Below, piece by piece: positions 678 to 18,509 of a stretch of 51,048 nt of DNA. This DNA comes from a virus. Taxonomy: Duplodnaviria; Caudoviricetes. A program made the position numbers and the translations under genes. Under the pieces are notes generated by a model, which was given only the letters and a program-made list of their open reading frames with translations, was not told where the DNA came from and ran no database searches. Location: IMG/VR virus record IMGVR_UViG_3300030331_003305, positions 1 through 51,048 of that record, one strand, 5' to 3'. Position 1 is the first letter of the stretch. Each line of letters starts with the position of its first letter.

Positions 678-1070
678 ATGCCACTACTAAGTAAAGAAGA
701 ACGCCAGACCCTAACCCCCGATGAAAAGCGAGCACTGCGTAAAGAACGCAGGGCTAAGCGGCGGGAGGAACGAGGCCCCTTTTTAGGGATTAAGTGGGAG
801 AAGATGGAGCCCATAGCCGAGGAGCTTATTCTAGACATCGCATCGGATGTAATCCCCGGCGAAGAAAAAATGAAAGAAGTCATCGACGATTTGGCCGAGC
901 GAGCTGACGACTTCTTGGAGTGGAAGGGACTACCCTTCTTTGTGTCTGCTGCGCTTGAGGCAGTTGACGGTATCATTATTAAAGCGATTGCCCGTGGTAT
1001 TCTTAAAGGTCCAGTGCAGAAGGTATACGACCGAATGAAAGAAGAAGGCAAGTTAGACGGGGAAGAATAG
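678..1070 (+). CDS. Hypothetical protein
   Basis: AGGAG SD upstream; tight operon packing. Confidence 0.8.
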   Translation: MPLLSKEERQTLTPDEKRALRKERRAKRREERGPFLGIKWEKMEPIAEELILDIASDVIPGEEKMKEVIDDLAERADDFLEWKGLPFFVSAALEAVDGIIIKAIARGILKGPVQKVYDRMKEEGKLDGEE

Positions 1071-1297
1071 TGGCTTACGACCCAAATAGCAAAAAAGCCA
1101 AGTTGCAACGAGCTATGTTGGGTCGTCTTAACTACAAGATGGGAAAAGAAGGCGACGGCAAGGACGTTTCCCATCAACCGGATGGTTCTGTTAAACTAGA
1201 GAAAGCCAGCAGGAACAGGGGAAGAAAAGGCGAGGGCGGTCGAAAGAAGGGCGTTCCTCACAATTATCCCAAGAAGCGGGATTCTCGCTTGAATTAG
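1070..1297 (+). CDS. Small basic protein, degenerate HNH-like
   Basis: GDGKDVSH...E..S.NR motif resembles small phage HNH-type proteins; GTG start overlaps the upstream stop. Confidence 0.5.
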   Translation: MAYDPNSKKAKLQRAMLGRLNYKMGKEGDGKDVSHQPDGSVKLEKASRNRGRKGEGGRKKGVPHNYPKKRDSRLN

Positions 1298-3209: not shown

Positions 3210-3717
3210 TCGGTAGCCCAGCTCTGCCTGTTCGACCTGTGGCGTACAGACCTATACCTATAGCGTCCCACATATCGTGAGTGCCATCGGGGTCTACGCA
3301 CTTGTGCTCGGATTTACTTAGAGCTTTTTCTATCCTTCGTCTATGGACATTTTTAGGTATGTTACCCTTCCACTGGTTTGGATACACGTAGTCTTTAACC
3401 AGAATACCATACTTCTGGAAGGCATCAAGAACGTCAAAGAGCGCGTCTACCCCACGAAACGTAGCGCGTTTTTTTGCGTAGTATTTAGGGACTTCAAACA
3501 CAAACTGCGGAGCAGCTTGGTCAAAGCCTTCCACATATTCAATCCAAAGGTCCTCTACTTGAGAGGGCAGATTGAGCAGATTACCTCCAGGGCGTATGCT
3601 GCACGCATACAGGAGCTGCGTCTGGTGAGGCTCGCAACCCCACACAGACACTCCGCATACCCTTTTACCGGGGTCAATGGCTATTAGAAGATGGGAAGCT
3701 ACTCTTTCTGCGTTCAT
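3202..3717 (-). CDS. RuvC-like Holliday junction resolvase
   Basis: IAIDPG...G, VFEVP, P..WKG, HD.WDAIGIGL catalytic motifs. Confidence 0.85.
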   Translation of the reverse strand: MNAERVASHLLIAIDPGKRVCGVSVWGCEPHQTQLLYACSIRPGGNLLNLPSQVEDLWIEYVEGFDQAAPQFVFEVPKYYAKKRATFRGVDALFDVLDAFQKYGILVKDYVYPNQWKGNIPKNVHRRRIEKALSKSEHKCVDPDGTHDMWDAIGIGLYATGRTGRAGLPTN

Positions 3718-5659
3718 CTGGACTCTCCCACACTAGAAGTTTGCCACTGTCATCGTAGACAGGGGCAGCATCTTTGTACCACCTTCGCATAAGAGCGGGC
3801 TCCGCTTCAATAGGAACATCAGGGATGTACTCCTGCATAGTCTTTACCATCAGCTCTGCCATAGCAGGTGCCCACTTGTGTGCGGTATCTTCTGGCCCTT
3901 CTGCGATGATCTCATCGTGAATGAGTACCCAAGGGTACACACCCTCAAAAGGAACCGAAGATGTGTAGCAACGCTTACACAGCTCCCACATAGCGTACTT
4001 GATTCCATCTGCAGTAAGACCTTGGAAGAAGGAGTTACAGGCAGAGGTATAAGATACATCCCCGCGGATTCGACCAGAGCGCAACTGCACGATAGTCCCA
4101 TCCAGTTTGGTCATCCTGCTAACGTCCTCGAAGTATTGGCGTGTCTCCTCCCACTCATCGAGCCACGCTTTACGAAGCTCACGAGCGCGGGTAATGTCGA
4201 TGTGCTTGCCGTAGTTGTTGCAGTATTCAACGAAGGTCTCTGCTGCCAGCCCACCTGGGAATCCGAAGTTGGCAATCTTGGCAAACTGCCTAGCCTCCTT
4301 CACTTCTTTGTGCTCTGGGTGGGTATCGTCCTTCAGAGCTTCTTTGGCAAGCTCCAGCTCCATACCGATAAGACTGGCCCCGAACTGCAGATGAGGGTCT
4401 ACCCCACGCTGGAAAGCCTCTGCTAGTCTGCTGTTCCCATACCAGTCTAGTTGGACCTGTGCGAAGGCCCGCAGCTCTATACTACTGTAGTCCACAGTGC
4501 AGAAGATGTTACCGGGTTGAGGTATGAAGCACTCTCGGAATCCAGACTTGCGAGGGGGATTCTGCAGGTTGGGGTACTTCCAACTCGTTCTACCAGAGCG
4601 CACCAGCACGTTTGGCTTGGAGCAGATGGGGTTTCTAATCCCTTGCTCTAAGATGGGCAGGTAGGTATTGAGGAGCTTCTCGGCGTTGAGATTCTTCGCG
4701 TATTCTGCCAACTGCAAGTTGCCTGACTTCTGCAGAGTCTTACGGTCTGTTTTGATTGCACCCTTGGCAGTGACAGGTGGGTTGTCACCGTAGGCTTCTG
4801 CAACCAATCCTTTGAGTATCTTCATGTTTCGAGAGCCGTCGAGTCGCATGAAGCCCAAGTCCATAGCGATTGCCCTAGCTTCTTCCACTTGGTCCATCAC
4901 TTGGATTCTGAAGTTGCCCACGGCTACGGGGTCTGTGACTACACCTCGACATGCCATCAGATGCAGAGCGAGCGCGGCTGCAGTCTGCTCCAGTTCGTTT
5001 ACTACCAATCCTTCTCTATGCAAAGGCTGAATGGTAGTGCCCACTCGGACACCTGCAGGTGTTTGATTCTGGGCCTCAAAGACGCGCCTAGCCCATGTGG
5101 AGTCCTGGGCACTGTAGACCAAGGCTGCTTCGGGCCACTCTCGCAGAGGTACGAACTCCAACTCATTGTACCTAAGTCTCCAGCTATCTCCGGTCTTGGT
5201 AGCACTGATGTCCACTTTGAAATACTTCTTCACTAGGTCGGCGAGGCTGTACTTCATCTTCTGCTTTGTCTCGTGATGGAAGTCTAAGTCGCCATGTGCG
5301 ACGTTGATGAGCTTTTCTCGCAGCAGGGTGTCACGTAGCTTGCCCTTTTCCATCATGGCGAATATGTCTGCGATGAACTGGGGCTCTTTCTTTATGAGCA
5401 CGCCCAAGTCGAAAGAGAGGTTGTGAGCCACCAGCACGACATCAGGGTCGGCACTCAAGTTTGCAAAGACGTAGCGCGTGTGTCGTGCAGAGTAGACAAC
5501 TTCCCAGCCGTCATCTACAGACCTCCACCAGCTCTCCTCGTCACGGGGTAAGTACTTAGGGGGCTCCCCTCTACCCGCTAGTGAGATGCACACAGCTCTA
5601 GGAGCTAAGCATCCGGGTTTAATGGGGTGGGTTTCAAAGTCAAATCCAATTAGTCTCAT
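3674..5659 (-). CDS. polA: Family A DNA polymerase with 3'-5' exonuclease
   Basis: ExoI GFDFET, ExoII AHNLSFD, ExoIII YSAQD; SGRTS..PNLQN, motif A DYSSIELR, motif B RQFAKIANFG, motif C IHDEI; GGAG SD before ATG 5659. Confidence 0.95.
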   Translation of the reverse strand: MRLIGFDFETHPIKPGCLAPRAVCISLAGRGEPPKYLPRDEESWWRSVDDGWEVVYSARHTRYVFANLSADPDVVLVAHNLSFDLGVLIKKEPQFIADIFAMMEKGKLRDTLLREKLINVAHGDLDFHHETKQKMKYSLADLVKKYFKVDISATKTGDSWRLRYNELEFVPLREWPEAALVYSAQDSTWARRVFEAQNQTPAGVRVGTTIQPLHREGLVVNELEQTAAALALHLMACRGVVTDPVAVGNFRIQVMDQVEEARAIAMDLGFMRLDGSRNMKILKGLVAEAYGDNPPVTAKGAIKTDRKTLQKSGNLQLAEYAKNLNAEKLLNTYLPILEQGIRNPICSKPNVLVRSGRTSWKYPNLQNPPRKSGFRECFIPQPGNIFCTVDYSSIELRAFAQVQLDWYGNSRLAEAFQRGVDPHLQFGASLIGMELELAKEALKDDTHPEHKEVKEARQFAKIANFGFPGGLAAETFVEYCNNYGKHIDITRARELRKAWLDEWEETRQYFEDVSRMTKLDGTIVQLRSGRIRGDVSYTSACNSFFQGLTADGIKYAMWELCKRCYTSSVPFEGVYPWVLIHDEIIAEGPEDTAHKWAPAMAELMVKTMQEYIPDVPIEAEPALMRRWYKDAAPVYDDSGKLLVWESPDERRKSSFPSSNSH

Positions 5660-5781: not shown

Positions 5782-6216
5782 CTATCCGTTGTGAGAACGC
5801 CAGATGACTTTCATAAAGGGGTTGCCTTTCAGTGTAGTGATGGTCTTTGCGTCTGCGACAACCTCAATACCACTGATAGCCGAACCGTCGCCTTGCGAAA
5901 GCTCCTCGCACATTTCGGATGTTACATCACCATAATCCACACCACTGGCTGCAGCTACGAAGCCTTTGACAGCAGATAGGAAGGTTTCTTTCTGGCGGCA
6001 CATGACGACCCAAGACACTCGTTCACCTGCTCGGTTGCTCTCCTCATCACCGTTAGTGACTTCCAGAACAGTGGCTTCTACTGCCACGTAAGGAGTGTTA
6101 TCGCGGCGGCTGCTGCCTTGTACGAACTTGTGAAGCTCTACGAGGTACGTTCCGTCTGCGAAGTATCGTTGTTGGGCGGGTGCCGCTGCTGTTTCAATGT
6201 TTGCAAAAATACTCAT
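5782..6216 (-). CDS. Putative single-stranded DNA-binding protein (OB-fold-like)
   Basis: YF.DGTYLV.L...G.SR...PY motif; position between helicase and polymerase; AAGGA SD before ATG 6216. Confidence 0.55.
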   Translation of the reverse strand: MSIFANIETAAAPAQQRYFADGTYLVELHKFVQGSSRRDNTPYVAVEATVLEVTNGDEESNRAGERVSWVVMCRQKETFLSAVKGFVAAASGVDYGDVTSEMCEELSQGDGSAISGIEVVADAKTITTLKGNPFMKVIWRSHNG

Positions 6217-6259
6217 TAGTTTTCCTTTTGTTTGAGTTTCTGATTCATTCTTTTTCTGT

Positions 6260-7933
6260 CTAACATTTAGACCAGTCACAGTAACATAGTTTTTGTTTGT
6301 TACCAGTCGTTTCTTCAATATACTTAGCTTGTTTCTTTGCGCTCTCCAAAGCGCGGGTTTGAGGCCAGTAATCCTGGCATACGGTTGTGTAAACTGTGTC
6401 AGCCCTCTGGCCGCTTCGATGGGTACGTCCGAGCAACTGCTCCCAAGTGGCTCCCGTAGGAGGAGGCTCAACAACTAGATTGTTTGCCCATGCTTGATAA
6501 TTACGGCCTTTATGGTGGATGGGGATTGACAATCCACAGGTCTGCCCAGGCGCGGGGTCAGTTCGATGGTGGACAGGCACCCCAAACTCTTTCATCTTCT
6601 CACCCACAGCTCGGCTCTGGAACCACACGAGGGTGGGGTCCTTCTGGCTTTTGACCCAGTTGCAGATGTCTCGAAGATAGTCCGAGCTAATCCAAACTGC
6701 CTTGACAGGAGGAGCGGGTCTGTGCTTTAGAGCTGCCCACGCGAAGTAAGTATTCTGCAGTTTGCGACTGCCCCCTCCAGACATAATCCATTTGACGAGC
6801 AGACTCTCGCTGTCTACGCCTTCTCGACTATGGTATCGAAGATAGCTTCCACAGGCAGAGTTCCACGCTTTTCGCGCGTCGTTCCACTCGTGGTCTACAC
6901 TACCGTCTGGCCAGTCCCACACGTAGTAGAATCCTAAACTCAACTGACGGGCTGCACGCATAAACTCCAGAGCATCGGCTAGGTACTCGCCGTTGGGTAG
7001 CTCCCAGTCAGCACCTAGCTTTTGTAGAGCTGCAGTTATCTTACGGTCCCTTCGTCCCTCCCAACCTTGCAGTACGAGGCTGCATCCAACGCTGCCTTCC
7101 TCTGATGCGACTACGCCCAAGGTATTTCGGAAGCGAGCTTGGAACGCTTTTCGATACACAGCTTCGCTGTCAGTGCCTTCCCCATGCCACGCGACCATTG
7201 GCATCAGAGCTTTGTAGGCGCGTCGGTCGGGCTCTCCATCTGGGTCCAACACGGATGACCAGATGTCCAAGGTTCTTTCATCTAGAGGGAGAGGGCTACC
7301 CCCACGTAAGGCTAGTTCGCAGAGGTGCCCATAGTCTTTCAGGGACTTCGAAGTAAGTGTACCAGATAATGCTGCGAAACGGGTACTAGGATTTTTTTGC
7401 ATGTAGCGAATAAACCGTTTGGTTCGTGCTGCCGTAGGGTGTCGGAGGCAGTGGGCCTCGTCAGCGATGATGCAATCAGGTTTGATAACTTCTAGTACGT
7501 TCCCACGGGTAGGTGAGCTTAGGTCGCTGTAGGCTACGATGTGGGGCATGGGGAAGTCGTAGTGCTGTGACCACTCCTGTAGGTCTCTACGACACTGCTC
7601 TCGCATGGCAGGGGGGATAAGGAGCACAGGCTTCTTACAGCCCCAAACCACAGGTAGCAGGAATGATGTGAGGGTCTTGCCATGTCCTACCCCAATGGCA
7701 CCGATGATGCCTTTGGGTGCGGGTAGTTGTTTGGCGACCTCCAACACTAAGCCCTGTAGAGGAAATAGTGTAGGTGCATCGACGTGGTTGCGTAATTCCT
7801 TGGTCATTCGGACGTGCGCGTCGGGCATGTCAGGGGTCTGGGGTAGCTTTAGAATACGCTCCATGTCTGTCTTGATTCCCTTCAGCTCCCTGGCTCTACG
7901 TGCTTTCTCAAGTGTGTTAGAAGCAGTCATCAT
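6260..7933 (-). CDS. SF2 (SNF2-like) DNA helicase
   Basis: GVGHGKT, IIADEAH, LSGT, EQLLGRTHRSGQ. Confidence 0.9.
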   Translation of the reverse strand: MMTASNTLEKARRARELKGIKTDMERILKLPQTPDMPDAHVRMTKELRNHVDAPTLFPLQGLVLEVAKQLPAPKGIIGAIGVGHGKTLTSFLLPVVWGCKKPVLLIPPAMREQCRRDLQEWSQHYDFPMPHIVAYSDLSSPTRGNVLEVIKPDCIIADEAHCLRHPTAARTKRFIRYMQKNPSTRFAALSGTLTSKSLKDYGHLCELALRGGSPLPLDERTLDIWSSVLDPDGEPDRRAYKALMPMVAWHGEGTDSEAVYRKAFQARFRNTLGVVASEEGSVGCSLVLQGWEGRRDRKITAALQKLGADWELPNGEYLADALEFMRAARQLSLGFYYVWDWPDGSVDHEWNDARKAWNSACGSYLRYHSREGVDSESLLVKWIMSGGGSRKLQNTYFAWAALKHRPAPPVKAVWISSDYLRDICNWVKSQKDPTLVWFQSRAVGEKMKEFGVPVHHRTDPAPGQTCGLSIPIHHKGRNYQAWANNLVVEPPPTGATWEQLLGRTHRSGQRADTVYTTVCQDYWPQTRALESAKKQAKYIEETTGNKQKLCYCDWSKC

Positions 7934-9828
7934 CCGAAGAATCCACGAACGATGATGATGTCTGCACGACGCTCTAAGAGAGGTAGTAGCTCATTGAGAC
8001 AAGGGTCCTTCTGTGAGGCGAGCACCGACTTGCCCAGCATTTTGCTGGCATGAGAGCCATTCAGCAGGGCTAAGAACTTAGACGCTACGTGCTTAGGCCC
8101 CATGTTGTAGTCGGCCAAGTTATAGTAGGCAAGCCCTTTTTCCTCGGCAACTTGTTCCTGCAAAGGCTCCAAGATAGTGGAGAGCTTTGTGGGGATGTGA
8201 TCGGAAGGAAATGCGTTGATGTAAATCACCACAGGTGCTAGAGCTTCAGCAGCCACGGGCTCTTTGGGCTTCTCGACCACAGGGGTCGTAGTCACCACCA
8301 CATCTTCTTCGACCTTACCAACGGGCTTGAGATGCGTCTTAGTCTCCTCGACGGGCTCCTGCACCGTTACAGGGGCTTGAGCGAGCTTCTCTGCCATCTC
8401 GACCTCGTGGTCTGATACACCGAGTCGCAGTGTGCAGTCGTCTGTTGACATCTCCACAGGGACTCCAGCATCATTGACCCACTTCACGAGGGTCTTGATG
8501 GTACTGCTTCGGGGCAGTCGGTTACCAGATACAGCCTCCTTCGCCATCGTGCGAACCACTGTGTCTGTTAACACTTCGGAGCTGGACAGGGCCATCAGTG
8601 CTTTCTTCCAGAAGCTCTCGACTTGAGCGAGGTTCCAATTACCAGGAAGGCACTTGTTCTTTTTGAACTGCAGCATCGTATCGATGTAGTCCGATAGACC
8701 TCCAGTAGTTTTGGGCTGCTCCACAACGACCTCCACGTCTTTGAGGGAGATGTAGTTCATACCTTTAACCAATCGACCGCCGCACGCTTCCATGAGCTTG
8801 TTGGCATCTTCCTGCTCAATCTTACGCTGCAGGTGCCACTCTAGGAACTCGAACAAGGTATCGAAGGTGAAGTCCTCATCCGCGGCTTCCTTCTCTTGGA
8901 TAGCCTTGATGAGCTGCTCGCCTAAGCGAACCCAGTCCACTTCCTCTTTGGGAGCAAGGGGATGGTCAATCTCTGCAATCGCTTCGGACGCTTGCTTGAC
9001 TTCCTTTTTCAGCCTTTCGATTTCAGCTTTGGCTGCAGCTTGTTTGGCTTTCTGTTCGTTGATTTTATCCATGATACTCATATCTTCTTCTCCTGTTTCT
9101 TTTTTCTGTTTGGGGTTTGTTTTTGTCTTTTTCTTTGGATATGCACTGCAGTGTTCTTTGAACCAGCAGAACCGACACTGCGAAACGTCGGGTGTAATTT
9201 CTTCCTGACGTTGAGCTTTCGCGAGTCGTGACATTACCTTAGCGACTCGTTCGAAATCGCGCCAGTTTTTTTCTACATCTGCCCACTCCGCTTCCGCATC
9301 TACTCGGAAGGAAGTAGCTATTTTAGATTTGGTTAAGTAGTAGATGTGACTGAATTTAATCTTAGTGGGCTGGATGTTGAGCTTTCTCGCTAGGACATAG
9401 GCATAGGCCAACATCTGGGGATTGAGTGCCAGCTCTGCTTCAGTCTTGGCGTTTGAGCTACGGCTGGTAGTCTTGTGGTCGGAGATGTGCAGGATGCCAT
9501 CTTTACAAGTGTAGAAGTCCACCTTCCCGCGGAAGGGTAGAGGTCCACAAACATCTTCGACCCACTCCTCAACTTGGACTGTACCGGGTTCGGGTAAGAA
9601 CTCGATACCTGCCTTAGCGATGTTCACGAGCTTCTCGTCAATGTCAGGCAGCTCCTTACCTTTAAGATAGGCTTCCAGCCAATCGTGTACATCGATACCC
9701 GTCTGCAGTGCAGGGGTCTTAGGTACGTCAGGTTTGATGACGTAACCGATGTACCACTTGCGCTCACACTGATTGAACTGTGTGTACGACGAGGCACTGA
9801 TGCCCATCTTTCTTTTAGGTCTACCCAT
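7930..9828 (-). CDS. PD-(D/E)XK Cas4/RecB-like exonuclease with long C-terminal extension
   Basis: S.S....F..C.RKW, G.DVH..LE, GKVD...ISDHKT, QMLAY, C..C.....C. Confidence 0.85.
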   Translation of the reverse strand: MGRPKRKMGISASSYTQFNQCERKWYIGYVIKPDVPKTPALQTGIDVHDWLEAYLKGKELPDIDEKLVNIAKAGIEFLPEPGTVQVEEWVEDVCGPLPFRGKVDFYTCKDGILHISDHKTTSRSSNAKTEAELALNPQMLAYAYVLARKLNIQPTKIKFSHIYYLTKSKIATSFRVDAEAEWADVEKNWRDFERVAKVMSRLAKAQRQEEITPDVSQCRFCWFKEHCSAYPKKKTKTNPKQKKETGEEDMSIMDKINEQKAKQAAAKAEIERLKKEVKQASEAIAEIDHPLAPKEEVDWVRLGEQLIKAIQEKEAADEDFTFDTLFEFLEWHLQRKIEQEDANKLMEACGGRLVKGMNYISLKDVEVVVEQPKTTGGLSDYIDTMLQFKKNKCLPGNWNLAQVESFWKKALMALSSSEVLTDTVVRTMAKEAVSGNRLPRSSTIKTLVKWVNDAGVPVEMSTDDCTLRLGVSDHEVEMAEKLAQAPVTVQEPVEETKTHLKPVGKVEEDVVVTTTPVVEKPKEPVAAEALAPVVIYINAFPSDHIPTKLSTILEPLQEQVAEEKGLAYYNLADYNMGPKHVASKFLALLNGSHASKMLGKSVLASQKDPCLNELLPLLERRADIIIVRGFFG

Positions 9829-12153
9829 TTACTCTACTCTGTTTTTTGCTTTGTTTTCTGGTTCGTCTATTGGGAGGCCGAGGTTTTCTGCCTCGGTGAC
9901 CACTGATGCCCAGGGTATTGCCCAGAACACCAGTCGGCTTCCTCCTTTTCTTCTTTTGCTTGTCGAGAGGTTGGACAGCGCGTTGGCTAACCGTCTAGGT
10001 GTTGGTGACTTGAAGGACGGGAAGTACGCATCCCACTTGTCTACAACGACCTCTGTTGTAACATATACTTGTTCGTCTTGCTTAAAGCAAGCATCTTTCT
10101 TATTCCCATCACGAGAAATCATTTTGGCGATGATGTAGAGCACTTGGCTGTTGATACCGACGCTCACGATAAATCTTCTATGCCAGTCCTCTAGCCTACC
10201 TTCGACTAGCAATCGGTTGCCGTAGCGCACTACTCGATTCTGTGCGAGCCATGCGATGTGCTTGGCGATACGTCCAGGGTTGTTACCTTGCATCACCCAA
10301 TCCTTCGTGGCGTTCCTGCCTCCGAGGTTGCGTAGAAAGGTTGCTGCAGCACCTTGAGCTTCGATGTACAGGGTTCGAGATACGATAGCTTGCAAGTCCT
10401 CCTCGGTTAGTGAGTTGTTGAATTGAAGTGCTCGGTCATTGTTTGCACAGATGATAACGCGAGCACACCCCTGTACCCGGACAACAGGTTGGTTTTTTCT
10501 ATTGATGGAGTGGTCACTATTGGCGACTAGGTTACGGAATACGATGTCAGGACTCATCCCGCCTTGGGTCAGGGTCACACCCTCATCCGCGGCTACCACA
10601 GGACATTCGAGAAGTCCAGCATTAAACTGCGACATCATCTCCTGCAGGGGCGTTGCCTTGCTACCCCACACCGATGCCAGTGCAGAGATGAGCATCGACT
10701 TGCCTGTACCGGGTTTGCCTTTCAAGTACATGGCGCAAGTGGGTAGGTCCAAGACCTTGAGGGTAGCCAGCCAGTCTAGGAGCACGTCCACCTTTGGGCC
10801 TGCTAAGGTTTCCAGCCACTCGGCTACTTTGTCATCCTGTTCGGGCTCAACGCCTACAGGCACGCAGCATCCGAGGAACAGCGTACCCCCGTTGTCTTTC
10901 TTGAACTCGGCACGAGGCTGACCCATCACATAGATGACTTGGTTTACGACGCGCCCATGATCGGACACTAACTGTCGAACGCTAGAGGGAGTTCCCTTGG
11001 TGCTTCGAGTAGAGATAGTGGGGATACCCGCCAAGGTGTACGCCTCTAGAGCGTTGACCAACATATTCCCTCCCACAGGAAAAGGGTGGTACTGCCACGG
11101 CTCTTGGCGGGTATCCAATACATAGAAGTGTTTATCTTGATGGACGAGTATTGCGGGCTGTCGCTCCCGGTTTTGAGCTTGGGTCTTCTCCTCTCGGAGC
11201 TTACCTGCTTCGCGTGCTGCGATTCGACAGCACTTTTCCCAGGCGTTTTTGAGTGACGGAGCCCCTTCGGATTGGTCTGCAGCTACGCTTCGATGGATGA
11301 AGCGATAGATTTGATTGGGGTCTGTAGCTTTGAGATACCCACCGAGGGATGCGATGCACTCCATCAAGGCGTTGTCTCTGTTGCCGGGTTTGCCCAGGGG
11401 CTCTCCCTGTTGGAGCTTGTGCAAGTATCTTCCAGCGAGGGATGCGCCGATTAGGTGTCGCCACTCCTCTCGTGTAGGAGGTACGACCTCTCGTTTGGTA
11501 TCGTCGATGTGGGCGGTGCTGGTGCCCACTTCTGTTCTTAGTCGTGCGGGTGGTGTCCATGTGAGTGTGTATCCATCTGCGATAGGTGTGAAGTCAACAA
11601 CGGACTGTGTGTGTTTTCCGTCGCGTGTGACGTGGGGTAGTCGAAAGGACGTGGACCATACAGAGAGGGTCTCGGCTGTGTCAGCAGGGATGCCATTGTC
11701 GATAAGGTACTTACGAAACTGGTTGTAGAAGGACTTCCAGTGTCGAGCGAGTACGGGCTTATCGAGTCTCCAGACGAGTCGGTAGCCAGCGCGGGTGGTA
11801 TAGATACCCGCATCTTCGAGCAGGGGGTTGATGGTCAGCTCGTCCATAGCCTGTTGTTTTTGCTCTTGGCTCTCCCACTCTGCATGTCCGGGGTTGTCCA
11901 CGTCGATGAATAGCCACTGGACCTTGGGCTCTTTACCTTCGTCAATTAGCCACTGGTGAGCGGATTTGTTGATACGGGGTAGTTCTGTTTCTCCTTCTAT
12001 GTAGTAGCAAGCTACGTGTGCATCGGTTGTGTAGCGGGACTGGATAGCTTCCTTCCAGTCTAGTAGTGGAAATGTTCGGACGGCACTGGTGGGTCCGTCT
12101 AGGCCCTTGACGTGGCGGTCGGGCCAGACGCATAGTTGGGTCATGGGGTTCAC
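9829..12153 (-). CDS. Primase/PrimPol fused to SF3 (D5-like) helicase
   Basis: FIDVD and YTTRAGYRL (AEP motifs), FRLP, GNRDN (PriCT-like), GKPGTGKS, VAADE, IICAN. Confidence 0.85.
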   Translation of the reverse strand: MNPMTQLCVWPDRHVKGLDGPTSAVRTFPLLDWKEAIQSRYTTDAHVACYYIEGETELPRINKSAHQWLIDEGKEPKVQWLFIDVDNPGHAEWESQEQKQQAMDELTINPLLEDAGIYTTRAGYRLVWRLDKPVLARHWKSFYNQFRKYLIDNGIPADTAETLSVWSTSFRLPHVTRDGKHTQSVVDFTPIADGYTLTWTPPARLRTEVGTSTAHIDDTKREVVPPTREEWRHLIGASLAGRYLHKLQQGEPLGKPGNRDNALMECIASLGGYLKATDPNQIYRFIHRSVAADQSEGAPSLKNAWEKCCRIAAREAGKLREEKTQAQNRERQPAILVHQDKHFYVLDTRQEPWQYHPFPVGGNMLVNALEAYTLAGIPTISTRSTKGTPSSVRQLVSDHGRVVNQVIYVMGQPRAEFKKDNGGTLFLGCCVPVGVEPEQDDKVAEWLETLAGPKVDVLLDWLATLKVLDLPTCAMYLKGKPGTGKSMLISALASVWGSKATPLQEMMSQFNAGLLECPVVAADEGVTLTQGGMSPDIVFRNLVANSDHSINRKNQPVVRVQGCARVIICANNDRALQFNNSLTEEDLQAIVSRTLYIEAQGAAATFLRNLGGRNATKDWVMQGNNPGRIAKHIAWLAQNRVVRYGNRLLVEGRLEDWHRRFIVSVGINSQVLYIIAKMISRDGNKKDACFKQDEQVYVTTEVVVDKWDAYFPSFKSPTPRRLANALSNLSTSKRRKGGSRLVFWAIPWASVVTEAENLGLPIDEPENKAKNRVE

Positions 12154-12185
12154 CTAGAGGTATGTATGTGGGAGATGTATGTAGT

Positions 12186-12479
12186 CTATCTGCTGCTAGA
12201 CTTCGCTTGCGGTGGAGCTGCTGGCCAGAAGGCTAGGTAGTCTGCCGCGACCTCGCTGTAGTACCACTTGTTCTTATTGTGGCGCAAGGCAAATTTTGTA
12301 ACTAGCCCTTTGTTGGCTAGTCGCTTCAGTGAATCTTGCACCCCTCGAAGGGAGATGCCCGTTGTTTCGTGCAGCTCTGCTGTAGTGCAGCCTGTGGACC
12401 CTGCGGTATGCAACGCCATAAGTAAGTCGTATTGTGTTTTCTTTATAGTTAGTGATCGTCCGTCTGCTTGTTTCGGCAT
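12186..12479 (-). CDS. Winged-helix transcription regulator
   Basis: TTAELHETTGISLRGVQDSLKRLANKGLV wHTH signature. Confidence 0.8.
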   Translation of the reverse strand: MPKQADGRSLTIKKTQYDLLMALHTAGSTGCTTAELHETTGISLRGVQDSLKRLANKGLVTKFALRHNKNKWYYSEVAADYLAFWPAAPPQAKSSSR

Positions 12480-12494
12480 TGTGTTTTCCTTTTC

Positions 12495-12701
12495 TTATAT
12501 CAGTTTGTCCAACCATCCTGGCTGGATTTCATCTTCTGGGTTTTTGGTTGCCCGGTCGATGGCGACCTCAAGTTGATTTTTTGTGAGGAGCAAATTTTGA
12601 TAGCCATCCCCCTTCCACACTAGCACTCTGAAGTAGACCCCACTAGAGCCTTTCTTAGCATCTAGGTTTTCTATCTTTTCAAGTTTTCCTCGTTTCAACA
12701 T
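12495..12701 (-). CDS. Hypothetical protein
   Basis: GGAGG SD; operon context. Confidence 0.7.
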   Translation of the reverse strand: MLKRGKLEKIENLDAKKGSSGVYFRVLVWKGDGYQNLLLTKNQLEVAIDRATKNPEDEIQPGWLDKLI

Positions 12702-12764
12702 GGGACCATCCTCCGAACTGGTTTGGTGTTCTTTGTTAATTACTATCAGATTTTTGTAGCGAGG

Positions 12765-12995
12765 TCACCTCCTCCTGCTCGGATGCTGGGGTAGTATCTC
12801 CAGCTTCGCGTTCACTCGCTTAGCCTTGCAGGTCAGGCAAGGGTTAAGGTGCGTACATCTCTGCTCTGGGAACATCGACTTGACGCTGCCCTCACACCCG
12901 CGTTGGGCTAGTGTGTCGATAAGTCTTAGCGCATCTACGCCCAGTTCAAGATTCATCACTACGCCCTCCACCAGACGGGCTGGTTCCTTTTCCAC
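12765..12995 (-). CDS. Small Cys-rich hypothetical protein (start may be 12959)
   Basis: C...C.H..PCLTC; operon context. Confidence 0.5.
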   Translation of the reverse strand: MEKEPARLVEGVVMNLELGVDALRLIDTLAQRGCEGSVKSMFPEQRCTHLNPCLTCKAKRVNAKLEILPQHPSRRR

Positions 12996-13420
12996 TTTGC
13001 AAACCCCTTCTCTCCGATGTAGAACGCTCGATAGGCTTGGACCACATCGTCAGTCTTGTACTGGTCTGGCATACACTGTGGCTGCGTCGACCATCCGTTG
13101 TCCTCGATGCAGGAGCGTTGTAGCCTAGTGGCCTCGATAACTTCCTGGCAAGCATGTATCTTACCATAGCGGGCGGTGTACTCCCAGCACAAGGCGAGAC
13201 CGTGTTGGACTAGCCAGTCGAAGTGCTGACGGCTGTCACGGGTCCAGACGGTACACGGATGGTTTTTGTGTGTGGGCTTGTACCTTGCGTATCCACCGTT
13301 GAGCACGATGGCAGTACAAAGCATTTGAGCGCACTCTAGTGGCATCTTGACAATGTGCTTGTCGCACTGTTGCTTGGCTGCGCTGATGGGGTCTGTGTCT
13401 AGTACAAAGATGTTCATCAC
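12959..13420 (-). CDS. Pyrimidine-dimer DNA glycosylase / endonuclease V-like protein
   Basis: MNIF.LD.DP..AA...CDKHIVKMPLE.AQML, H.NHPCT.W.R, EY..RYGK.H, AYR.FY...K. Confidence 0.85.
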   Translation of the reverse strand: MMNIFVLDTDPISAAKQQCDKHIVKMPLECAQMLCTAIVLNGGYARYKPTHKNHPCTVWTRDSRQHFDWLVQHGLALCWEYTARYGKIHACQEVIEATRLQRSCIEDNGWSTQPQCMPDQYKTDDVVQAYRAFYIGEKGFAKWKRNQPVWWRA

Positions 13421-13881
13421 TCCCCCTCCACCGCCATCGCCACGTTGTCGAAGTCGGATATATCTAGCTCGTCCCAGTCTGCGTAGGCAGGTTCCTCGTA
13501 GACCTCATGTATATCGACGAAATCTTGAGGGTCACCTATGCTACCAGCAGCTGACTCCCACTCGTCTATCCAAGACTGGTACGAAAGCCCTTTCTCACTC
13601 TCCTGCCATTTCTCACTTCGAGCGTCGAAGAACTCTGTCAGAGAGTCTCGCACTTCTTCTGCGAATTCTTCAGCTTCTTCTAAGCAACTTCTATCTAAGT
13701 TGCCTATGTCGCTCAAAAGGTCAGCCCCTAGATTCTCTACGGTGTCGTGCAACTCTTGGTATAGTTCCGCGAGCTTGTCGTTGTATGCGCTCACAAGAGC
13801 GCTGCCTTCTGCTTGGTACTCCTCTAGCTTATCGACTATCTCTCTATGTCTAGCTTGTTGTGATGATGTTAGTTTTTTCAT
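13417..13881 (-). CDS. Highly acidic early protein
   Basis: Own promoter and GAGG SD; RSEKWQESEKG..Y..W..EWE motif; very D/E-rich. Confidence 0.8.
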   Translation of the reverse strand: MKKLTSSQQARHREIVDKLEEYQAEGSALVSAYNDKLAELYQELHDTVENLGADLLSDIGNLDRSCLEEAEEFAEEVRDSLTEFFDARSEKWQESEKGLSYQSWIDEWESAAGSIGDPQDFVDIHEVYEEPAYADWDELDISDFDNVAMAVEGE

Positions 13882-13920
13882 TTGTCTTTTCCTCTTTGGT
13901 TTTGTTTAGTTGGTTTGAAT

Positions 13921-13948
13921 AAGTTAATAGCTTTTCGCGAATAGTCAA
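13921..13948 (-). promoter_or_regulatory. Sigma70-type promoter with TTCGCGAA operator in the spacer
   Basis: TTGACT-16-TAACTT; TTCGCGAA at 13934-13941. Confidence 0.65.
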
Positions 13949-13957
13949 TAGTTTATT

Positions 13958-13990
13958 TAAAAGAAAAGAGGGGGTAGTATGTCTCCCCCC
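13958..13990 (-). terminator. Intrinsic terminator
   Basis: Minus strand GGGGGGAG-ACATAC-TACCCCCT followed by CTTTTCTTTT. Confidence 0.75.
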
Positions 13991-14680
13991 GCTCATGCTC
14001 TTGACCTCTTTCGAGTACACACACCGGCAAAGTTAAACCGTTCAAGAGCTTCCTCCCTGTTCTCGTCTCTCGACACTGAACAGCAAGCAAATGTCTGCGA
14101 GGATGTTCTGCGCTTGGGTCAAGTCGTTGGCCAGTAGACTCAACCCTCCACGCCCTTACAAAGTAACTACTCAGGATAGCCAAGTTGCAAGACCCTTTCG
14201 GGACACCTCCCAGGTTTCCCCAGGAGGTAGAGAGGCTTCCACCTCTCGCAGTTGTATTCTAGGGGCTGCCCCCATTTCCCTGAGACTTTTTGAGTTCTTA
14301 GGGTGGATGCCTAATCCGACCGTTAGGAGGATGAATACACAAGTCCCCCCTAAGCAACTCAACAGTAATGAAGCCCTCTACAGCTTCCCCTCTTGAGTTA
14401 CTCACTGGCAGGTTTTACCTTGGGTAGAGACCAAGTTAGTCCTGCCGCGCTCACAAGTCCGGTGGCAGGAGTGTGTGAACACTCCCCATGTCGGACGCGC
14501 TTCTGCCTATCAACCGTCTACTTACGGTTGAGGAGAGGCCCGGTTAAAAAACCTCTCATTTAAAGACCCGGCAGCTAGGGGTCAGTTAGCGATGTAAAAG
14601 AACAATGATGTCTATGGAGGCATGAAGGGCTCCTTGGTTGTGGCATTTAAGGGAATGTTTTTCTTATGTTCCCTCCCCCC
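13960..14680 (-). ncRNA. Large structured ncRNA, ROOL-like candidate
   Basis: No credible ORF; more than 10 stems, several nested; GAAA/GAGA tetraloops and G-U pairs mostly favour the minus strand; TATAAT at 14684-14689; terminator at the 3' end. Confidence 0.7.
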
Positions 14681-14736
14681 TCAATTATATAGACGGACTC
14701 GAACCACATCTTCGGATACGCAATCTGCATTTTTAT

Positions 14737-15132
14737 TCAATCTCTCTCTCCTTCAATGCTTGGCCAGCTAGATGTAAAGGACATCATCGCTTCCAGCTCC
14801 CTATCTCTGTTGTTAATAAAGTTGTCCATCTCGTCTCGACGAGCTGCGTGAACCCCGCCATACATTACCGGATGCTCACTAGGACGTACACACGGGCTAC
14901 CTTTATTTGCACCGCACTTATCGCATGGCACCTCACGGGAAATCACCCTTCGCATTAGTCTTGTAAACTTATCCCCTGGAGTCGTGCCGTGGATGTGGTG
15001 AGGGTTGCCCATAGCCTTCGCAACCTTCAGACCTTCAAGTGCAAACCAGTGGCTGATGAAGTAACTAAAGTCCTCACCTTCCCACTTCAATACATAGTCT
15101 CTACCCGGAGTTCCTTTATCTAAGGACCACAT
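14737..15132 (-). CDS. Hypothetical protein with C-terminal zinc finger
   Basis: V.CDKCGA.KG.PC....H..R. Confidence 0.7.
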   Translation of the reverse strand: MWSLDKGTPGRDYVLKWEGEDFSYFISHWFALEGLKVAKAMGNPHHIHGTTPGDKFTRLMRRVISREVPCDKCGANKGSPCVRPSEHPVMYGGVHAARRDEMDNFINNRDRELEAMMSFTSSWPSIEGERD

Positions 15133-15133
15133 G

Positions 15134-15328
15134 CTACTCTATCTCCTCGGCGCACACCCAGACCCACGCCTGGACGTAGCACCCTTTCGCATCTTCATCA
15201 TCACTGATGGACACCTCTGCTTCCTCGTCCACTTCGATGTGCCCTTCGTCATGGTAGAGCCTACGGGCTGCGTTGCGGTACTTGGCTTCTAGGTACATTC
15301 TTGCTGCTATACGGGAGGCTTTCATCAC
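15134..15328 (-). CDS. Hypothetical phage protein
   Basis: IEVD..A.VS....G.YVQAWVWV motif; GGAGG SD. Confidence 0.7.
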   Translation of the reverse strand: MMKASRIAARMYLEAKYRNAARRLYHDEGHIEVDEEAEVSISDDEDAKGCYVQAWVWVCAEEIE

Positions 15329-15648
15329 TCACCTCCCATCTCTAGTGTCATGCTCCCATGCTCCTCCACTGTATCCAGCGTGTCGTCTATGAAGTTGAGG
15401 ATTCCATCTAGGTGCTCTATGGATTCCTTAGTAAGCCCTGGAGACGAGGTAGGCTTGCCGTCGATACGTTCTACCAATGCACCGAGGATGTTGATGATGG
15501 TGTCTTTCTGGTATCTAAGAAGTTCAGTGTCTATCTTTCTCGTTTGATTCATTCTCTTTGCTCCTCCGTCTTTCATTACGAAAGCGTGCTTGTAGTCTGG
15601 TTGTTCTGATTTCAGTCTTTCGATTTCTTCTTCTGTCATTGTCCACAT
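15325..15648 (-). CDS. Hypothetical protein
   Basis: Coupled ORF in early operon. Confidence 0.7.
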   Translation of the reverse strand: MWTMTEEEIERLKSEQPDYKHAFVMKDGGAKRMNQTRKIDTELLRYQKDTIINILGALVERIDGKPTSSPGLTKESIEHLDGILNFIDDTLDTVEEHGSMTLEMGGE

Positions 15649-15712
15649 CCTTTTCTAATCCCTGCCCACATGGTGGCTGTAAAGAACAGCACCACCCAAA
15701 ACATCGGCCACG

Positions 15713-15931
15713 TTAGCATGGTGCGTCCCCCGTGTACTCACACTTGGCCCATTCCACTAGGTGGTCAGTGGGCACTACCAGCTTCACAGTGATGGTGGTT
15801 TCTCCAAAGTAGTCATCGTGGTACACATCACCTTTGGTGGGCACCTTTATATCAAACTCCACAGGTCGGGCTTTGCTCTCTCTGATTAGTTCACGCACAC
15901 CATGACGTGCTTGTGCATCTGTCAGTTCCAT
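15713..15931 (-). CDS. Hypothetical protein
   Basis: Follows a promoter and an A/C-rich leader. Confidence 0.7.
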   Translation of the reverse strand: MELTDAQARHGVRELIRESKARPVEFDIKVPTKGDVYHDDYFGETTITVKLVVPTDHLVEWAKCEYTGDAPC

Positions 15932-15977
15932 TTCGTTTCTCTCTTTGTTTTTGTTTTCGGTTTTGTTTTGCTTGAGT

Positions 15978-16006
15978 ATCGTAGTTTTCTATTCGCGAAA
16001 GGTCAA
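15978..16006 (-). promoter_or_regulatory. Sigma70-type promoter with TTCGCGAA operator
   Basis: TTGACC-17-TACGAT; TTCGCGAA at 15992-15999. Confidence 0.75.
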
Positions 16007-16188
16007 CTACTTTCTTTTTCTTTTTGGTATCCATCTCGATACCAGCCTCCTCCTTTCAGTGCGAAGTTGGTTCGGCTGATGAGCTTCGTCATAGGTTTGC
16101 CGCAGCACTCTGGTGGTGGGTCATCGTAGCGTTGTAACTTCGTGGCTCCCCTGCCACACTTCCCACAGTGGTATTCATACAGTGGCAT
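16003..16188 (-). CDS. FmdB-family zinc-ribbon protein
   Basis: MPLYEY.C..CG...C.CG..M.KLIS...F.LKGGGWY.DGY. Confidence 0.9.
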   Translation of the reverse strand: MPLYEYHCGKCGRGATKLQRYDDPPPECCGKPMTKLISRTNFALKGGGWYRDGYQKEKESS

Positions 16189-16201
16189 TGATGTTTATCC
16201 T

Positions 16202-16708
16202 CTAGAATGTGCCAGCGTTCCATTGGCGAATCATACTATCATACGTCTCGTCCATAGCGCGGTCTGCTTCTGCCTGACCTAGCACAGCGTCTGCGTGGTC
16301 GTCGAACATCTCCTCTAGATCCCATTCAGATATGAGTTTGTGCTCCATCTCGACGTACTCCCGTTTGGTCATGTCACACCCGTCTTTCCACTTCTCGAAC
16401 TTCTCAAGGTCGATACCCTTTTCTAGTACAGCACTCACCATGGCTTCGAGTTCTGTGTATACCTCGTTCAGAATGTCGGTCATGTATGGTCCAACGGAGT
16501 CCTCTTTCTCCTCCTTTAAGTCTTGTAGGGGTTCATCGGTAGCCTCCTCGAAAGTTAGCATCTTTGGTGTGTTGTCTGTCTTACTCATTGTTCTCTCCTT
16601 GTTACTCATTGGTCTTTGTCTCCCTAAGTTCACATTCCTGTGGTGATATGGAAGTTCTTCCTTAGCTTTCTCTGTCTCTAAGTGAGACTGTAGTTTACTC
16701 CCTGTCAT
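16202..16708 (-). CDS. Acidic hypothetical protein (start 16708 or 16588)
   Basis: TAATG overlap at 16708; AAGGAG SD before 16588. Confidence 0.7.
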   Translation of the reverse strand: MTGSKLQSHLETEKAKEELPYHHRNVNLGRQRPMSNKERTMSKTDNTPKMLTFEEATDEPLQDLKEEKEDSVGPYMTDILNEVYTELEAMVSAVLEKGIDLEKFEKWKDGCDMTKREYVEMEHKLISEWDLEEMFDDHADAVLGQAEADRAMDETYDSMIRQWNAGTF

Positions 16709-17049
16709 TATGCCCCCTTCGCCATGCGCTCTGCGGTTTTGATTAGGACGGTTGCCCAATCGTATCGTGTCAGGTTGCGTACAAAACTCTGGCCGTTTGA
16801 GTAGCTACCCTCTACCATGTTGGGCCTGGCCCCAAACTTGGCTTCGTACGCTCGGATGAATGTATCTACATCTTGGTCTTCCTCAAGGTAGAAGGTCTGG
16901 CAGTCTCGCTTCATGTAGGAGTAGCGGGTTAGCTTGTCTCCAATGCCTAGCAGGTAGACCATAGCGAAGGGTACTTCGAGCCACCCATGTTGGGGGTCAG
17001 TGTGTGTTTTGTAGGTGTTGACGTTTTGGTTTTGTGTGTTGTCTGACAT
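16708..17049 (-). CDS. Conserved hypothetical early phage protein
   Basis: DP.HGWL.VP....LGI.....YSY.....YLEED.D motif; ATG 17049 follows an A/C-rich leader. Confidence 0.75.
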   Translation of the reverse strand: MSDNTQNQNVNTYKTHTDPQHGWLEVPFAMVYLLGIGDKLTRYSYMKRDCQTFYLEEDQDVDTFIRAYEAKFGARPNMVEGSYSNGQSFVRNLTRYDWATVLIKTAERMAKGA

Positions 17050-17401: not shown

Positions 17402-17640
17402 TCCCCCAAATCTGGATGTTTAAGTAGGAAGCCCACTAGCTTTGAGTATTCCCAATGTTGATACTTACAGGCTAGTTGATGTACCTCGTTAGCTATCTGC
17501 TCTGCGTTGTCATAAAGCCAAGATGGTATTTGAATTGGATATCCTTGTTTAGTTTCTGGACACCATAGGTTGACAGTGTACACTGGCATCCTTTCGTAAC
17601 GGTCGAATCGTTCTGTCTTTGTCGCTAAAATTCCCATCAT
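17398..17640 (-). CDS. Hypothetical protein
   Basis: Coupled ORF with SD. Confidence 0.65.
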   Translation of the reverse strand: MMGILATKTERFDRYERMPVYTVNLWCPETKQGYPIQIPSWLYDNAEQIANEVHQLACKYQHWEYSKLVGFLLKHPDLGE

Positions 17641-17645
17641 TCCCC

Positions 17646-18509
17646 CTATGCTGCCAATGCAGCGGTCTGTGTTTCGATGTCCTGTACAAATCCCGATGTA
17701 TCTTTTTTCGCCTTGCCCTTGGCGAATAGGATGACCGCTGTCCCTTTCGGGTCGTCATATCGCAGGTCGTTTTTGTCTCCGTCAATAGCTGGATAGCCTC
17801 GGAATCCCATAGCCACTGCCCATCGGGCTTGTAGTTTGCTACGGACTACGACCGCCACGTTCCCGCCATTGTCCAACCATTCCCTAGCATTGTCCCAGCT
17901 ACCCGCTTGTTCAGATAGAGAGTAAGTCAAGTGATAGTTGCTCGGCACGTTTGGTCGTTGTCGCTTAGTGAACTTGGTGTAGTCGTAGAATTGTAGCTCT
18001 GGGAACTGGTCAATGATTCCCGTTCGTTCCCATAGGATGTCGGATGTACCATTCAAGCGCACCGCTGGAGTGTAGCCGTCCAGCTCGCAAGTGTACTTGT
18101 GGATGTTTAGCTCGCACTTCAAATCGTGCATGAACTGTTCACGATATAGATAGTATCGAAGTGTACGCTTTATCCTAGCCTTGATAGCTGGACGCATCAC
18201 CATTTGTCCCGATGTGTTGATGCAAACGCTTGCGCAGTTACCCGCCATAGGACAGGTATTGACACCAGCCTCCTTAGCTGGACTCATGTAGAGAATAAAC
18301 GTCTTTACTTTCTCGCTCAATCCTTTGTCAGTTTTAAAACTCTGGCTTGCAAGGGTAGCGTACCTACTCTTGCCACTCTTGCCCCCACTCGTGGTGCGTA
18401 GCCACTCGCCAAGGTCCATGGTTTTGTTGCGATGTAGGCAAGTCGAGGTTTCGACATCGTAGCCGATGGACTTGAGCACATCAGATATAGCTGGCGTGAT
18501 ACGTGGCAT
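17646..18509 (-). CDS. Gp88-like protein with Cys triad (radical-SAM-like fold)
   Basis: TCPMAGNCASVC, VRLNGTSD, FYDYTK, NYHLTYS, DGD..DLR..DP. Confidence 0.7.
   Translation of the reverse strand: MPRITPAISDVLKSIGYDVETSTCLHRNKTMDLGEWLRTTSGGKSGKSRYATLASQSFKTDKGLSEKVKTFILYMSPAKEAGVNTCPMAGNCASVCINTSGQMVMRPAIKARIKRTLRYYLYREQFMHDLKCELNIHKYTCELDGYTPAVRLNGTSDILWERTGIIDQFPELQFYDYTKFTKRQRPNVPSNYHLTYSLSEQAGSWDNAREWLDNGGNVAVVVRSKLQARWAVAMGFRGYPAIDGDKNDLRYDDPKGTAVILFAKGKAKKDTSGFVQDIETQTAALAA

Follow-up and report, generated by a model that had tools for sequence, protein, structure and literature searches.

The window analysed here is the whole of a 51,048-base virus record (IMGVR_UViG_3300030331_003305), rated 94% complete, and our subject within it is an 855-nucleotide (nt) gap (13882–14736) between two minus-strand open reading frames (ORFs; 13417–13881 and 14737–15132), which probably holds the gene of a large structured non-coding RNA. 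The record represents a tailed phage, with terminase, portal and major head protein encoded on a plus-strand arm, and with a family-A DNA polymerase, a helicase-like protein, a PD-(D/E)XK nuclease, a DUF5906 primase-helicase, a MarR-like regulator and a pyrimidine-dimer glycosylase on a minus-strand arm. An initial annotation, made by reading the sequence, had remarked on the lack of a transfer RNA (tRNA) cluster, and ARAGORN indeed called no tRNA gene in the 51,048 bases. The nearest relatives of this phage lineage are marine metagenome contigs; a collection of 50,697 deposited phage genomes yielded no relative, either by the DNA of the gap (blastn, 'distant' setting) or by the primase (tblastn).

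The same annotation had described the gap as gene-free and set among early genes, and we found no credible ORF in it: those inside are all at most 101 amino acids (aa) long, in mixed frames and on mixed strands, and of five that were tested none matched PHROGs and none reached the Pfam cut-off. What the gap does contain is a dense array of predicted RNA structure on the minus strand. For 13940–14700, the minimum free energy (MFE) of the minus strand is −288.2 kcal/mol (z −5.52), as against a z of −3.15 for the plus strand. The core, 13955–14590, folds at −259.0 kcal/mol compared with −219.3 ± 7.4 for 200 dinucleotide shuffles, none of which was as low (best shuffle −241.3; z about −5.3 to −5.5), which disposes of the concern, raised with the first reading, that the folding might be no better than that of shuffled sequence. 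Minus-strand windows of 400 nt give z values of −5.7 and −4.3 inside the element and of +1.5 to −2.4 in its flanks. The core MFE comprises 20 hairpins (shuffle mean 12.1), about four multibranch loops (pseudoknots lie outside the prediction method) and 26 G·U pairs, and five of its seven tetraloops belong to the GNRA type (three GAAA, one GAGA and one GGAA), against a shuffle mean of 0.27 and a maximum of 2 (n = 200).

Local stems were judged by pair probability in the MFE of 13955–14590 computed from the window alone. All seven local stems recognized in the initial annotation are part of this fold, with probabilities of 0.88–1.00 (Table 1), as are its minus-strand loops, GAAA at 14218–14215, 14199–14196 and 14012–14009 and GAGA at 14071–14068, to which we add a GGAA loop at 14240–14237.

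Table 1. Features of the RNA element, its transcript signals and its neighbours (window coordinates)
Feature	Positions	Strand	Remarks
Conserved cassette block, gap inside	13877–14745	minus	blastn blocks in L002 and L035 share these borders
RNA core by metatranscriptome contigs	13979–14585 (607 nt)	drawn on minus	X12, X15, X17, X18
TATAAT, −10-like hexamer	14684–14689	minus	read from the sequence; conserved in L002 and L035; no recognisable −35
5′ leader feature	14604–14635	minus	AAGGAG, 6 nt, then AUG-CCU-CCA-UAG (14635–14612); read from the sequence
Terminator-like G-rich stem, then U-run	13959–13990	minus	helix 13990–13983/13977–13969 in fold; U-run on minus strand only
Stem	13997–14004/14042–14049	minus	p 0.95
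Stem	14057–14062/14078–14083	minus	p 1.00
Stem	14204–14214/14219–14229	minus	p 0.98
Stem	14230–14236/14241–14247	minus	p 0.88
Stem	14407–14412/14441–14446	minus	p 1.00
Stem	14467–14474/14479–14486	minus	p 0.93
Stem	14510–14517/14524–14531	minus	p 0.96
GAAA-capped hairpin, 3′ domain	14006–14015	minus	variant P0042
GAGA-capped hairpin	14064–14075	minus	variant P0043
10-bp hairpin, 11-nt loop with self-complementary UGGCCA (14133–14128)	14116–14146	minus	candidate inter-copy contact
Two adjacent GNRA-capped hairpins	14204–14247	minus	GGAA loop 14240–14237; 11-bp stem with GAAA loop 14218–14215
Central region, variable, A-rich loop	14280–14345	minus	fold mis-predicted
12-bp helix around hairpin 14370–14387	14351–14404	minus	compensatory and pair-keeping changes
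Candidate kissing-loop pair	14376–14429	minus	loops 14429–14424 and 14381–14376 complementary, 6 Watson–Crick pairs
Hairpin, conserved base and variable tip	14510–14531	minus	14524/14517 U-A to C-G in L002
P0001, downstream gene	13417–13881	minus	acidic coiled-coil protein; missing from L035, an RNA carrier
P0002, upstream gene	14737–15132	minus	phage zinc-finger domain; missing from L002 and L035, both RNA carriers

Natural variation bears this fold out in its local parts. The data at the DNA level comprise three copies (the window and the related loci L002 and L035) and a metatranscriptome contig, X18; further haplotypes (among them the P0031 group, P0042 and P0043) were obtained as minimal nucleotide changes, inferred codon by codon from translations of spurious ORFs in public assemblies. 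Within 13985–14590 there are 15 distinct DNA-level changes, and of the 12 at paired positions three break a pair, compared with a null mean of 6.35 (P 0.009, window-only MFE). Over eight haplotypes, variant pairs are kept in 24 cases and broken in 8 for the minus-strand fold, as opposed to 13 kept and 18 broken for the plus-strand fold. Three to four pairs are compensated, where about 0.30 would be expected from random placement summed over six haplotypes: 14524/14517 at the DNA level, 14397/14358 and 14073/14066 by inference, and 14394/14361 as a possible case.

These changes are spread over several hairpins. In the helix 14351–14404, the P0031 group carries a compensatory C-G to A-U exchange at 14397/14358 and, if the codon is CGA, another from A-U to G-C at 14394/14361; changes at 14400, 14398, 14355 and 14403 keep the pairing, and pair 14382/14375 of the enclosed hairpin occurs as U·G, C-G and U-A. 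All four changes in the 11-bp stem (14213, 14208, 14224 and 14226) are pair-keeping, as are those at 14118 and 14124 in the 10-bp hairpin, and many wobble-preserving changes are inferred in the 11-bp, 10-bp and 7-bp stems. The hairpin 14510–14531 is trimmed in L035 by a 6-nt deletion to a 5-bp stem with a GCAA tetraloop cap. Variant P0043 combines a compensatory U-A to C-G at 14073/14066 with U·G to U-A at 14064 and a loop change from GAGA to GAAA (14069), and P0042 has U-A to U·G at 14007 and GAAA to GAGA (14010), so that the GNRA loop is retained in both; indeed, all three loop changes seen stay within GNRA.

The longer-range pairings of the initial annotation fared less well. Its stem 14183–14188/14354–14359, thought to enclose a domain, lies outside the MFE and is contradicted by three independent variants, 14188 G>A (L035), 14355 G>A (X18) and 14358 G>U (P0031 group), each of which breaks it and is kept or compensated in local hairpins. 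Its pairing 14253–14259/14333–14339 amounts to a 6–7-nt complementarity between unpaired segments, and its end pairing, 14620–14626 with 13992–13998, is a putative one that the sequence would allow. Two features of the loops may indicate how the molecule is held together. No variant alters either loop of the candidate kissing pair, although the closing pair next to them does vary, and UGGCCA is likewise invariant in all variants seen; hairpin–hairpin complementarity of at least 6 occurs in 5% of 200 shuffles, and a 6-nt palindrome in a hairpin loop in 17% of 200, and we treat the loop–loop complementarity and the palindrome as leads rather than findings.

To place the element among related phages, primase homologues were used to collect 22 viral and 80 metagenome loci, and 162 loci in all were searched by nhmmer with the gap; matches appeared solely in L035 and in L002, a contig that also figures as L140. 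Six close relatives, counting the window, span the slot, their primases being 88–100% identical (best tblastn segment), and the RNA is present in three (window, L002, L035) and absent from three (L025, L030, L034). The slot reads P0002, RNA, P0001 and glycosylase gene in the window, RNA, P0001 and glycosylase in L002, and RNA and glycosylase in L035. None of the four occurs in L034, where the flanks join directly; L030 has 284 bases of other DNA in their place; and in L025 (5665–6766 of that locus) small ORFs and an HNH endonuclease gene (6182–6769) replace P0002, RNA and P0001, with the glycosylase kept. The borders of the cassette coincide with gene starts and stops. Between copies, the RNA block is 96–97% identical, compared with 81–93% for neighbouring genes and 81–87% for upstream genes. 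Because the downstream gene differs among carriers, the element has no obligatory neighbour, and the comparison strongly indicates that the RNA comes and goes as one piece, whether or not either adjoining gene does so too. P0002, used as a protein probe for related loci, gave no match.

The slot as a whole (12960–15135) is a hot spot of cassette exchange at gene borders, in which P0002, the RNA, P0001 and the glycosylase gene each come and go independently.

Public sequencing runs suggest that the element is transcribed. The stretch or a part of it occurs in 20 of 24 runs listed, eight of which are RNA libraries, and four RNA runs from three studies were placed on 12000–17000. Two runs of one study gave contigs at 13985–14585 (X12, depth 20.3) and 14020–14581 (X15, depth 20.1), and the two other studies gave contigs at 13979–14145 (X17) and 14318–14572 (X18); on the flanks the RNA runs show no more than a few fragments, each about 160 nt long, with a depth of 2–3. 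The contrast between a depth of about 20 on the element and 2–3 on its flanks speaks against DNA carry-over as the source, and the depths fit, as a hint, a stable RNA far more abundant than the neighbouring messages. As for the discrete transcript named in the initial annotation, contigs of three studies are confined to 13979–14585, which is a hint of one. On the 3′ side the contigs end within the terminator-like hairpin 13990–13959, and the span from TATAAT to this terminator is about 730 nt. Both signals, named in the initial annotation, are visible by reading, and neither is called by a consensus scan, the loop rules of which the terminator-like hairpin does not satisfy.

Just upstream of TATAAT and inside the cassette block, the minus strand at 14705–14695 bears a tRNA T-loop-like motif, GGTTCGAGTCC; no tRNA was called at 14695–14705 by ARAGORN or Rfam, and the motif may be a tRNA remnant or a chance occurrence.

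Taken together, fold statistics, GNRA enrichment, structure-preserving variation, the want of a coding signal and the confined contigs support the general view of the initial annotation, that a large, ornate, minus-strand non-coding RNA lies among the early genes. We go further and consider it probable that the cassette 13877–14745 is a stand-alone gene for a large structured RNA of a new class, transcribed from the minus strand.

Several observations weigh against this reading. The distribution of the element is narrow: besides the blank blastn search of the phage collection with the gap, three k-mer scans of viral contigs (46, 6 and 5 stretches) contained, by nhmmer, L002's contig as the one true copy; peptide patterns taken from a spurious-ORF alignment (A7) and run on viral contigs returned that contig alone; an 18-mer scan of genome contigs gave four chance matches in unrelated metagenome-assembled genomes; and a covariance model of the domain 14094–14252, run on 100 of the 162 loci (0.89 Mb), reached at best 11.1 bits (E 1.6). 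A single marine phage lineage accounts for all the copies, which differ by only about 3–7%, so that covariation rests on three to four pairs, two or three of which are known indirectly via protein translations, a route by which synonymous changes are invisible. On the three DNA sequences a covariation shuffle test is non-significant (174 of 500 shuffles score at least as high) because divergence is too low; the covariation among homologues asked for in the initial annotation shows, at limited depth, in the excess of compensated pairs and not in this test. As a background to the fold statistics, among 70 other windows (400 nt, first 14 kb, 12 shuffles) the extreme z is −4.7, and a crude count of GNRA hairpins discriminates weakly (7 in the element versus 6 at 17601–18250). 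Pairs predicted in the central region, at 14293, 14294, 14300, 14307/14315 and 14345, are broken in variants, so that the overall architecture given here is provisional. As for expression, neither strand nor ends nor level can be read from assembled contigs, and the presence of this very stretch was the ground on which the runs were chosen. The contigs fail to reach TATAAT by about 100 nt, the start proposed there is putative, and the 5′ end of the RNA may be either primary or processed; the consensus scan found no promoter-like site and a single terminator-like one, the internal hairpin 14387–14370. Finally, the action in trans and the self-association that we propose below are inferences.

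Elsewhere in the window, stretches 801–1200 (both strands) and 9601–10000 (minus) give z values of about −4.2 to −4.7, comparable to one half of the element, and 17601–18250 (minus) carries six GNRA-capped stems of at least 3 bp, the second-highest count in the genome, inside a GP88-domain gene (17646–18509).

Among the alternatives, the one that survives best, and that we still regard as unlikely, makes the element a cis-acting structured part of an early polycistronic transcript, that is, a 5′ leader, a processing site or a stabiliser for a neighbour. Its orientation is that of the flanking genes, no canonical −35 is present, the contigs fall short of the putative start, and the 5′ portion contains a strong Shine–Dalgarno sequence and a three-codon mini-ORF. 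This mini-ORF (Met-Pro-Pro-stop, 14635–14612) has a synonymous second proline codon and a different stop codon in L002 and L035, and a variable 12-nt patch (14615–14604) starts within its last two codons and runs downstream; the leader feature 14604–14635 lies beyond the coverage of the RNA contigs and may be what cassette exchange has left of a gene start, or else a leader that is translated. A cis-acting role is hard to reconcile with the terminator-like hairpin and U-run that stand between the element and the next gene, with a downstream gene that is P0001 in the window and L002 but, in L035, the gene for pyrimidine-dimer glycosylase (what lies upstream differs too), and with RNA-library contigs that lie on the element and leave both neighbours almost uncovered. 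Moreover, at least 600 nt with five GNRA loops far exceeds known leaders.

We give little credence to a function at the DNA level, such as a replication origin, a packaging site or a recombination hot spot. Pairing is strand-asymmetric, with 26 G·U pairs on the minus strand and variant pairs kept in 24 of 32 cases there compared with 13 of 31 on the plus strand; GNRA loops are a feature of RNA and remain GNRA when mutated; the element is present in RNA libraries without its flanks; and half of the close relatives lack it, which makes an essential origin unlikely. These points stand against its position in the arm of replication genes, near those for primase, nuclease and polymerase, its residence in a slot of cassette exchange that accommodates an HNH endonuclease gene in L025, and a plus strand that also folds better than its shuffles.

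The sharp presence/absence borders at gene ends, the many GNRA loops and, again, the HNH endonuclease in the same slot of L025 would also suit a decayed mobile ribozyme, a group I or group II intron, or some other element capable of self-splicing or self-cleavage, that has lost its protein gene. This is very improbable: even at E ≤ 10 there is no match to a ribozyme model, be it group I, group II or any other, the element sits between genes and not within one, and its conservation above that of the flanks speaks against decay.

That the region encodes one or more small proteins, for instance from a plus-strand ORF of 101–149 aa, we judge highly improbable, and the conserved coding signal that could have overturned the initial annotation was looked for in the gap and not found. 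The longest ORF of the gap, 14091–14396 (plus strand, 101 aa), is open in the window and in L002, and a frame of 149 codons is open in six database entries; the ORF runs opposite to all genes of the arm, has no upstream Shine–Dalgarno sequence and matches no family. Among 5.8 billion proteins it has one cluster of relatives (149 aa, 87% identical, six members, ten contigs of up to 47.6 kb), whose representative matches only itself among 1.84 billion representatives. The relatives of this 'protein' are near-identical copies only, which fits a non-coding region. Their amino-acid changes are radical and fall in clusters, their frame continues past the stop codon of the window, and the frame relation shifts near 14517–14533; third codon positions account for three of the eight DNA-level changes inside the ORF, which is no excess, and the same changes make sense as substitutions that preserve RNA pairs. 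A second ORF, 13979–14137, belongs to a cluster seen on 43 contigs, with two further, more diverged entries.

Membership of ROOL or GOLLD, to which size (600–730 nt), phage carriage, ornate structure, dispensability and a self-complementary loop might point, is scarcely credible, as there is no match at gathering score or at E ≤ 10 and no tRNA gene in 51 kb, and the motif order cited for ROOL in the initial annotation does not amount to a test.

The searches behind this statement used Rfam 15, which includes the ROOL and GOLLD models. No family matched anywhere in the window at gathering score, and neither of the two matched at E ≤ 10 in 13700–14950, in 13955–14700, or in L002 at 3500–4400 and 3780–4060. 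Permissive Rfam searches returned chance-level matches to an archaeal S15 leader (E 5.6–9.5) and to flavivirus xrRNA, Xist and Ocean-VII (E 2.4–4.1). The family proposed in the initial annotation is therefore not upheld, and its fallback, a new large RNA class, fits better.

One further candidate, IMES-1 (RF02034), aligned to L002 at 3851–3982 (approximately 14288–14419 of the window) at 16.1 bits, where the gathering score is 81 (E 0.26–0.82). We judged this to be chance: the alignment contains non-standard pairs, the middle of the model is collapsed from 97 to 41 positions, and the window's own copy gives no match.

Compared with known systems, the element resembles ROOL in being a phage-carried, dispensable, ornate RNA of about 600 nt with many hairpins, in having conserved loops on variable stems, and in possessing a self-complementary loop that could bridge copies. 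Two reports, that of Weinberg et al. 2017 and the cryo-electron microscopy work of Kretsch et al., give ROOL an average length of 581 nt, six junctions and three pseudoknots, and place ROOL and GOLLD often near tRNAs (PMC5737381; bioRxiv 10.1101/2024.12.08.627333); the second also describes self-complementary loops in ROOL and GOLLD assemblies and some GOLLD members from marine metagenomes (bioRxiv 10.1101/2024.12.08.627333). The length of our element, 607 nt by contig span and about 730 nt from TATAAT to terminator, is near that average, and size alone is non-diagnostic. The junctions and pseudoknots of ROOL could not be matched in it, it has no covariance-model match and no tRNA neighbourhood, and it resides in a marine tailed phage, unlike ROOL, which occurs in Bacillota or rumen prophages. 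Since size and phage location alone fit, the ROOL reading is not supported. With GOLLD the element shares being a large structured RNA of phage or prophage; it differs in lacking a covariance-model match and an adjacent tRNA and in being shorter than the typical >800 nt. Like IMES-1 it is marine and found in metatranscriptomes, but no match comes near the gathering score. Full-text searches of the literature brought up no description of this RNA. The element is in no described RNA family, and its likeness to ROOL and GOLLD is one of kind only.

Accessory ('moron'-like) early genes and counter-defence cassettes offer a different comparison. Like them, the element occupies a hypervariable slot, is swapped whole at gene borders and occurs in some close relatives only; unlike them, its product would be a large structured RNA and not a small protein. 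Swappable accessory genes of the early region usually serve host take-over or counter-defence, and it is for this reason that we favour such a role, in trans, for the RNA. From its anatomy and genomic position, we picture a compact trans-acting particle, possibly self-associating. The RNA would be transcribed from the minus strand, in the same sense as the early genes, with a core of about 600 nt (13979–14585) that may extend to about 730 nt, from just after TATAAT to the terminator-like hairpin 13990–13959. The transcript is predicted to fold into a compact multi-domain particle, held together by GNRA-mediated contacts and by the 6-bp loop–loop interaction (14429–14424/14381–14376), and would accumulate as a stable species during infection. 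Once folded, it may serve there as a scaffold or a decoy, for which host take-over or counter-defence is the most plausible setting. Complementarity to the remaining phage genome reaches at best 13 nt (E 0.46) and gives no sign of an antisense target. The invariant self-complementary UGGCCA loop (14133–14128) suggests that the RNA may also pair with its own copies. The boldest form of this proposal, that the element founds a new class of ornate phage RNAs of roughly 600–730 nt, unrelated to ROOL and GOLLD, that like these form RNA-only homo-oligomers, here through the UGGCCA loop and GNRA contacts, and that serve uncultured marine phages as a swappable early-region module for host take-over or counter-defence, is one that we offer tentatively, as a possibility well short of an expectation.

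To our knowledge, very few natural RNA classes exceed 500 nt with complex folds outside ribosomal RNA, introns and RNase P. Each new large class (OLE, GOLLD and ROOL) has opened new structural biology, including RNA-only cages. If our reading is true, the element described here adds an unrelated large RNA class from uncultured marine phages. Its presence and absence as a cassette among near-identical genomes constitute a natural knock-out series, and its size, together with five GNRA-capped hairpins, makes it a practical target for chemical probing and cryo-electron microscopy. Its place among exchangeable early genes, in turn, leads to a testable hypothesis, namely that a large structured RNA may take part in host take-over or counter-defence in these phages.

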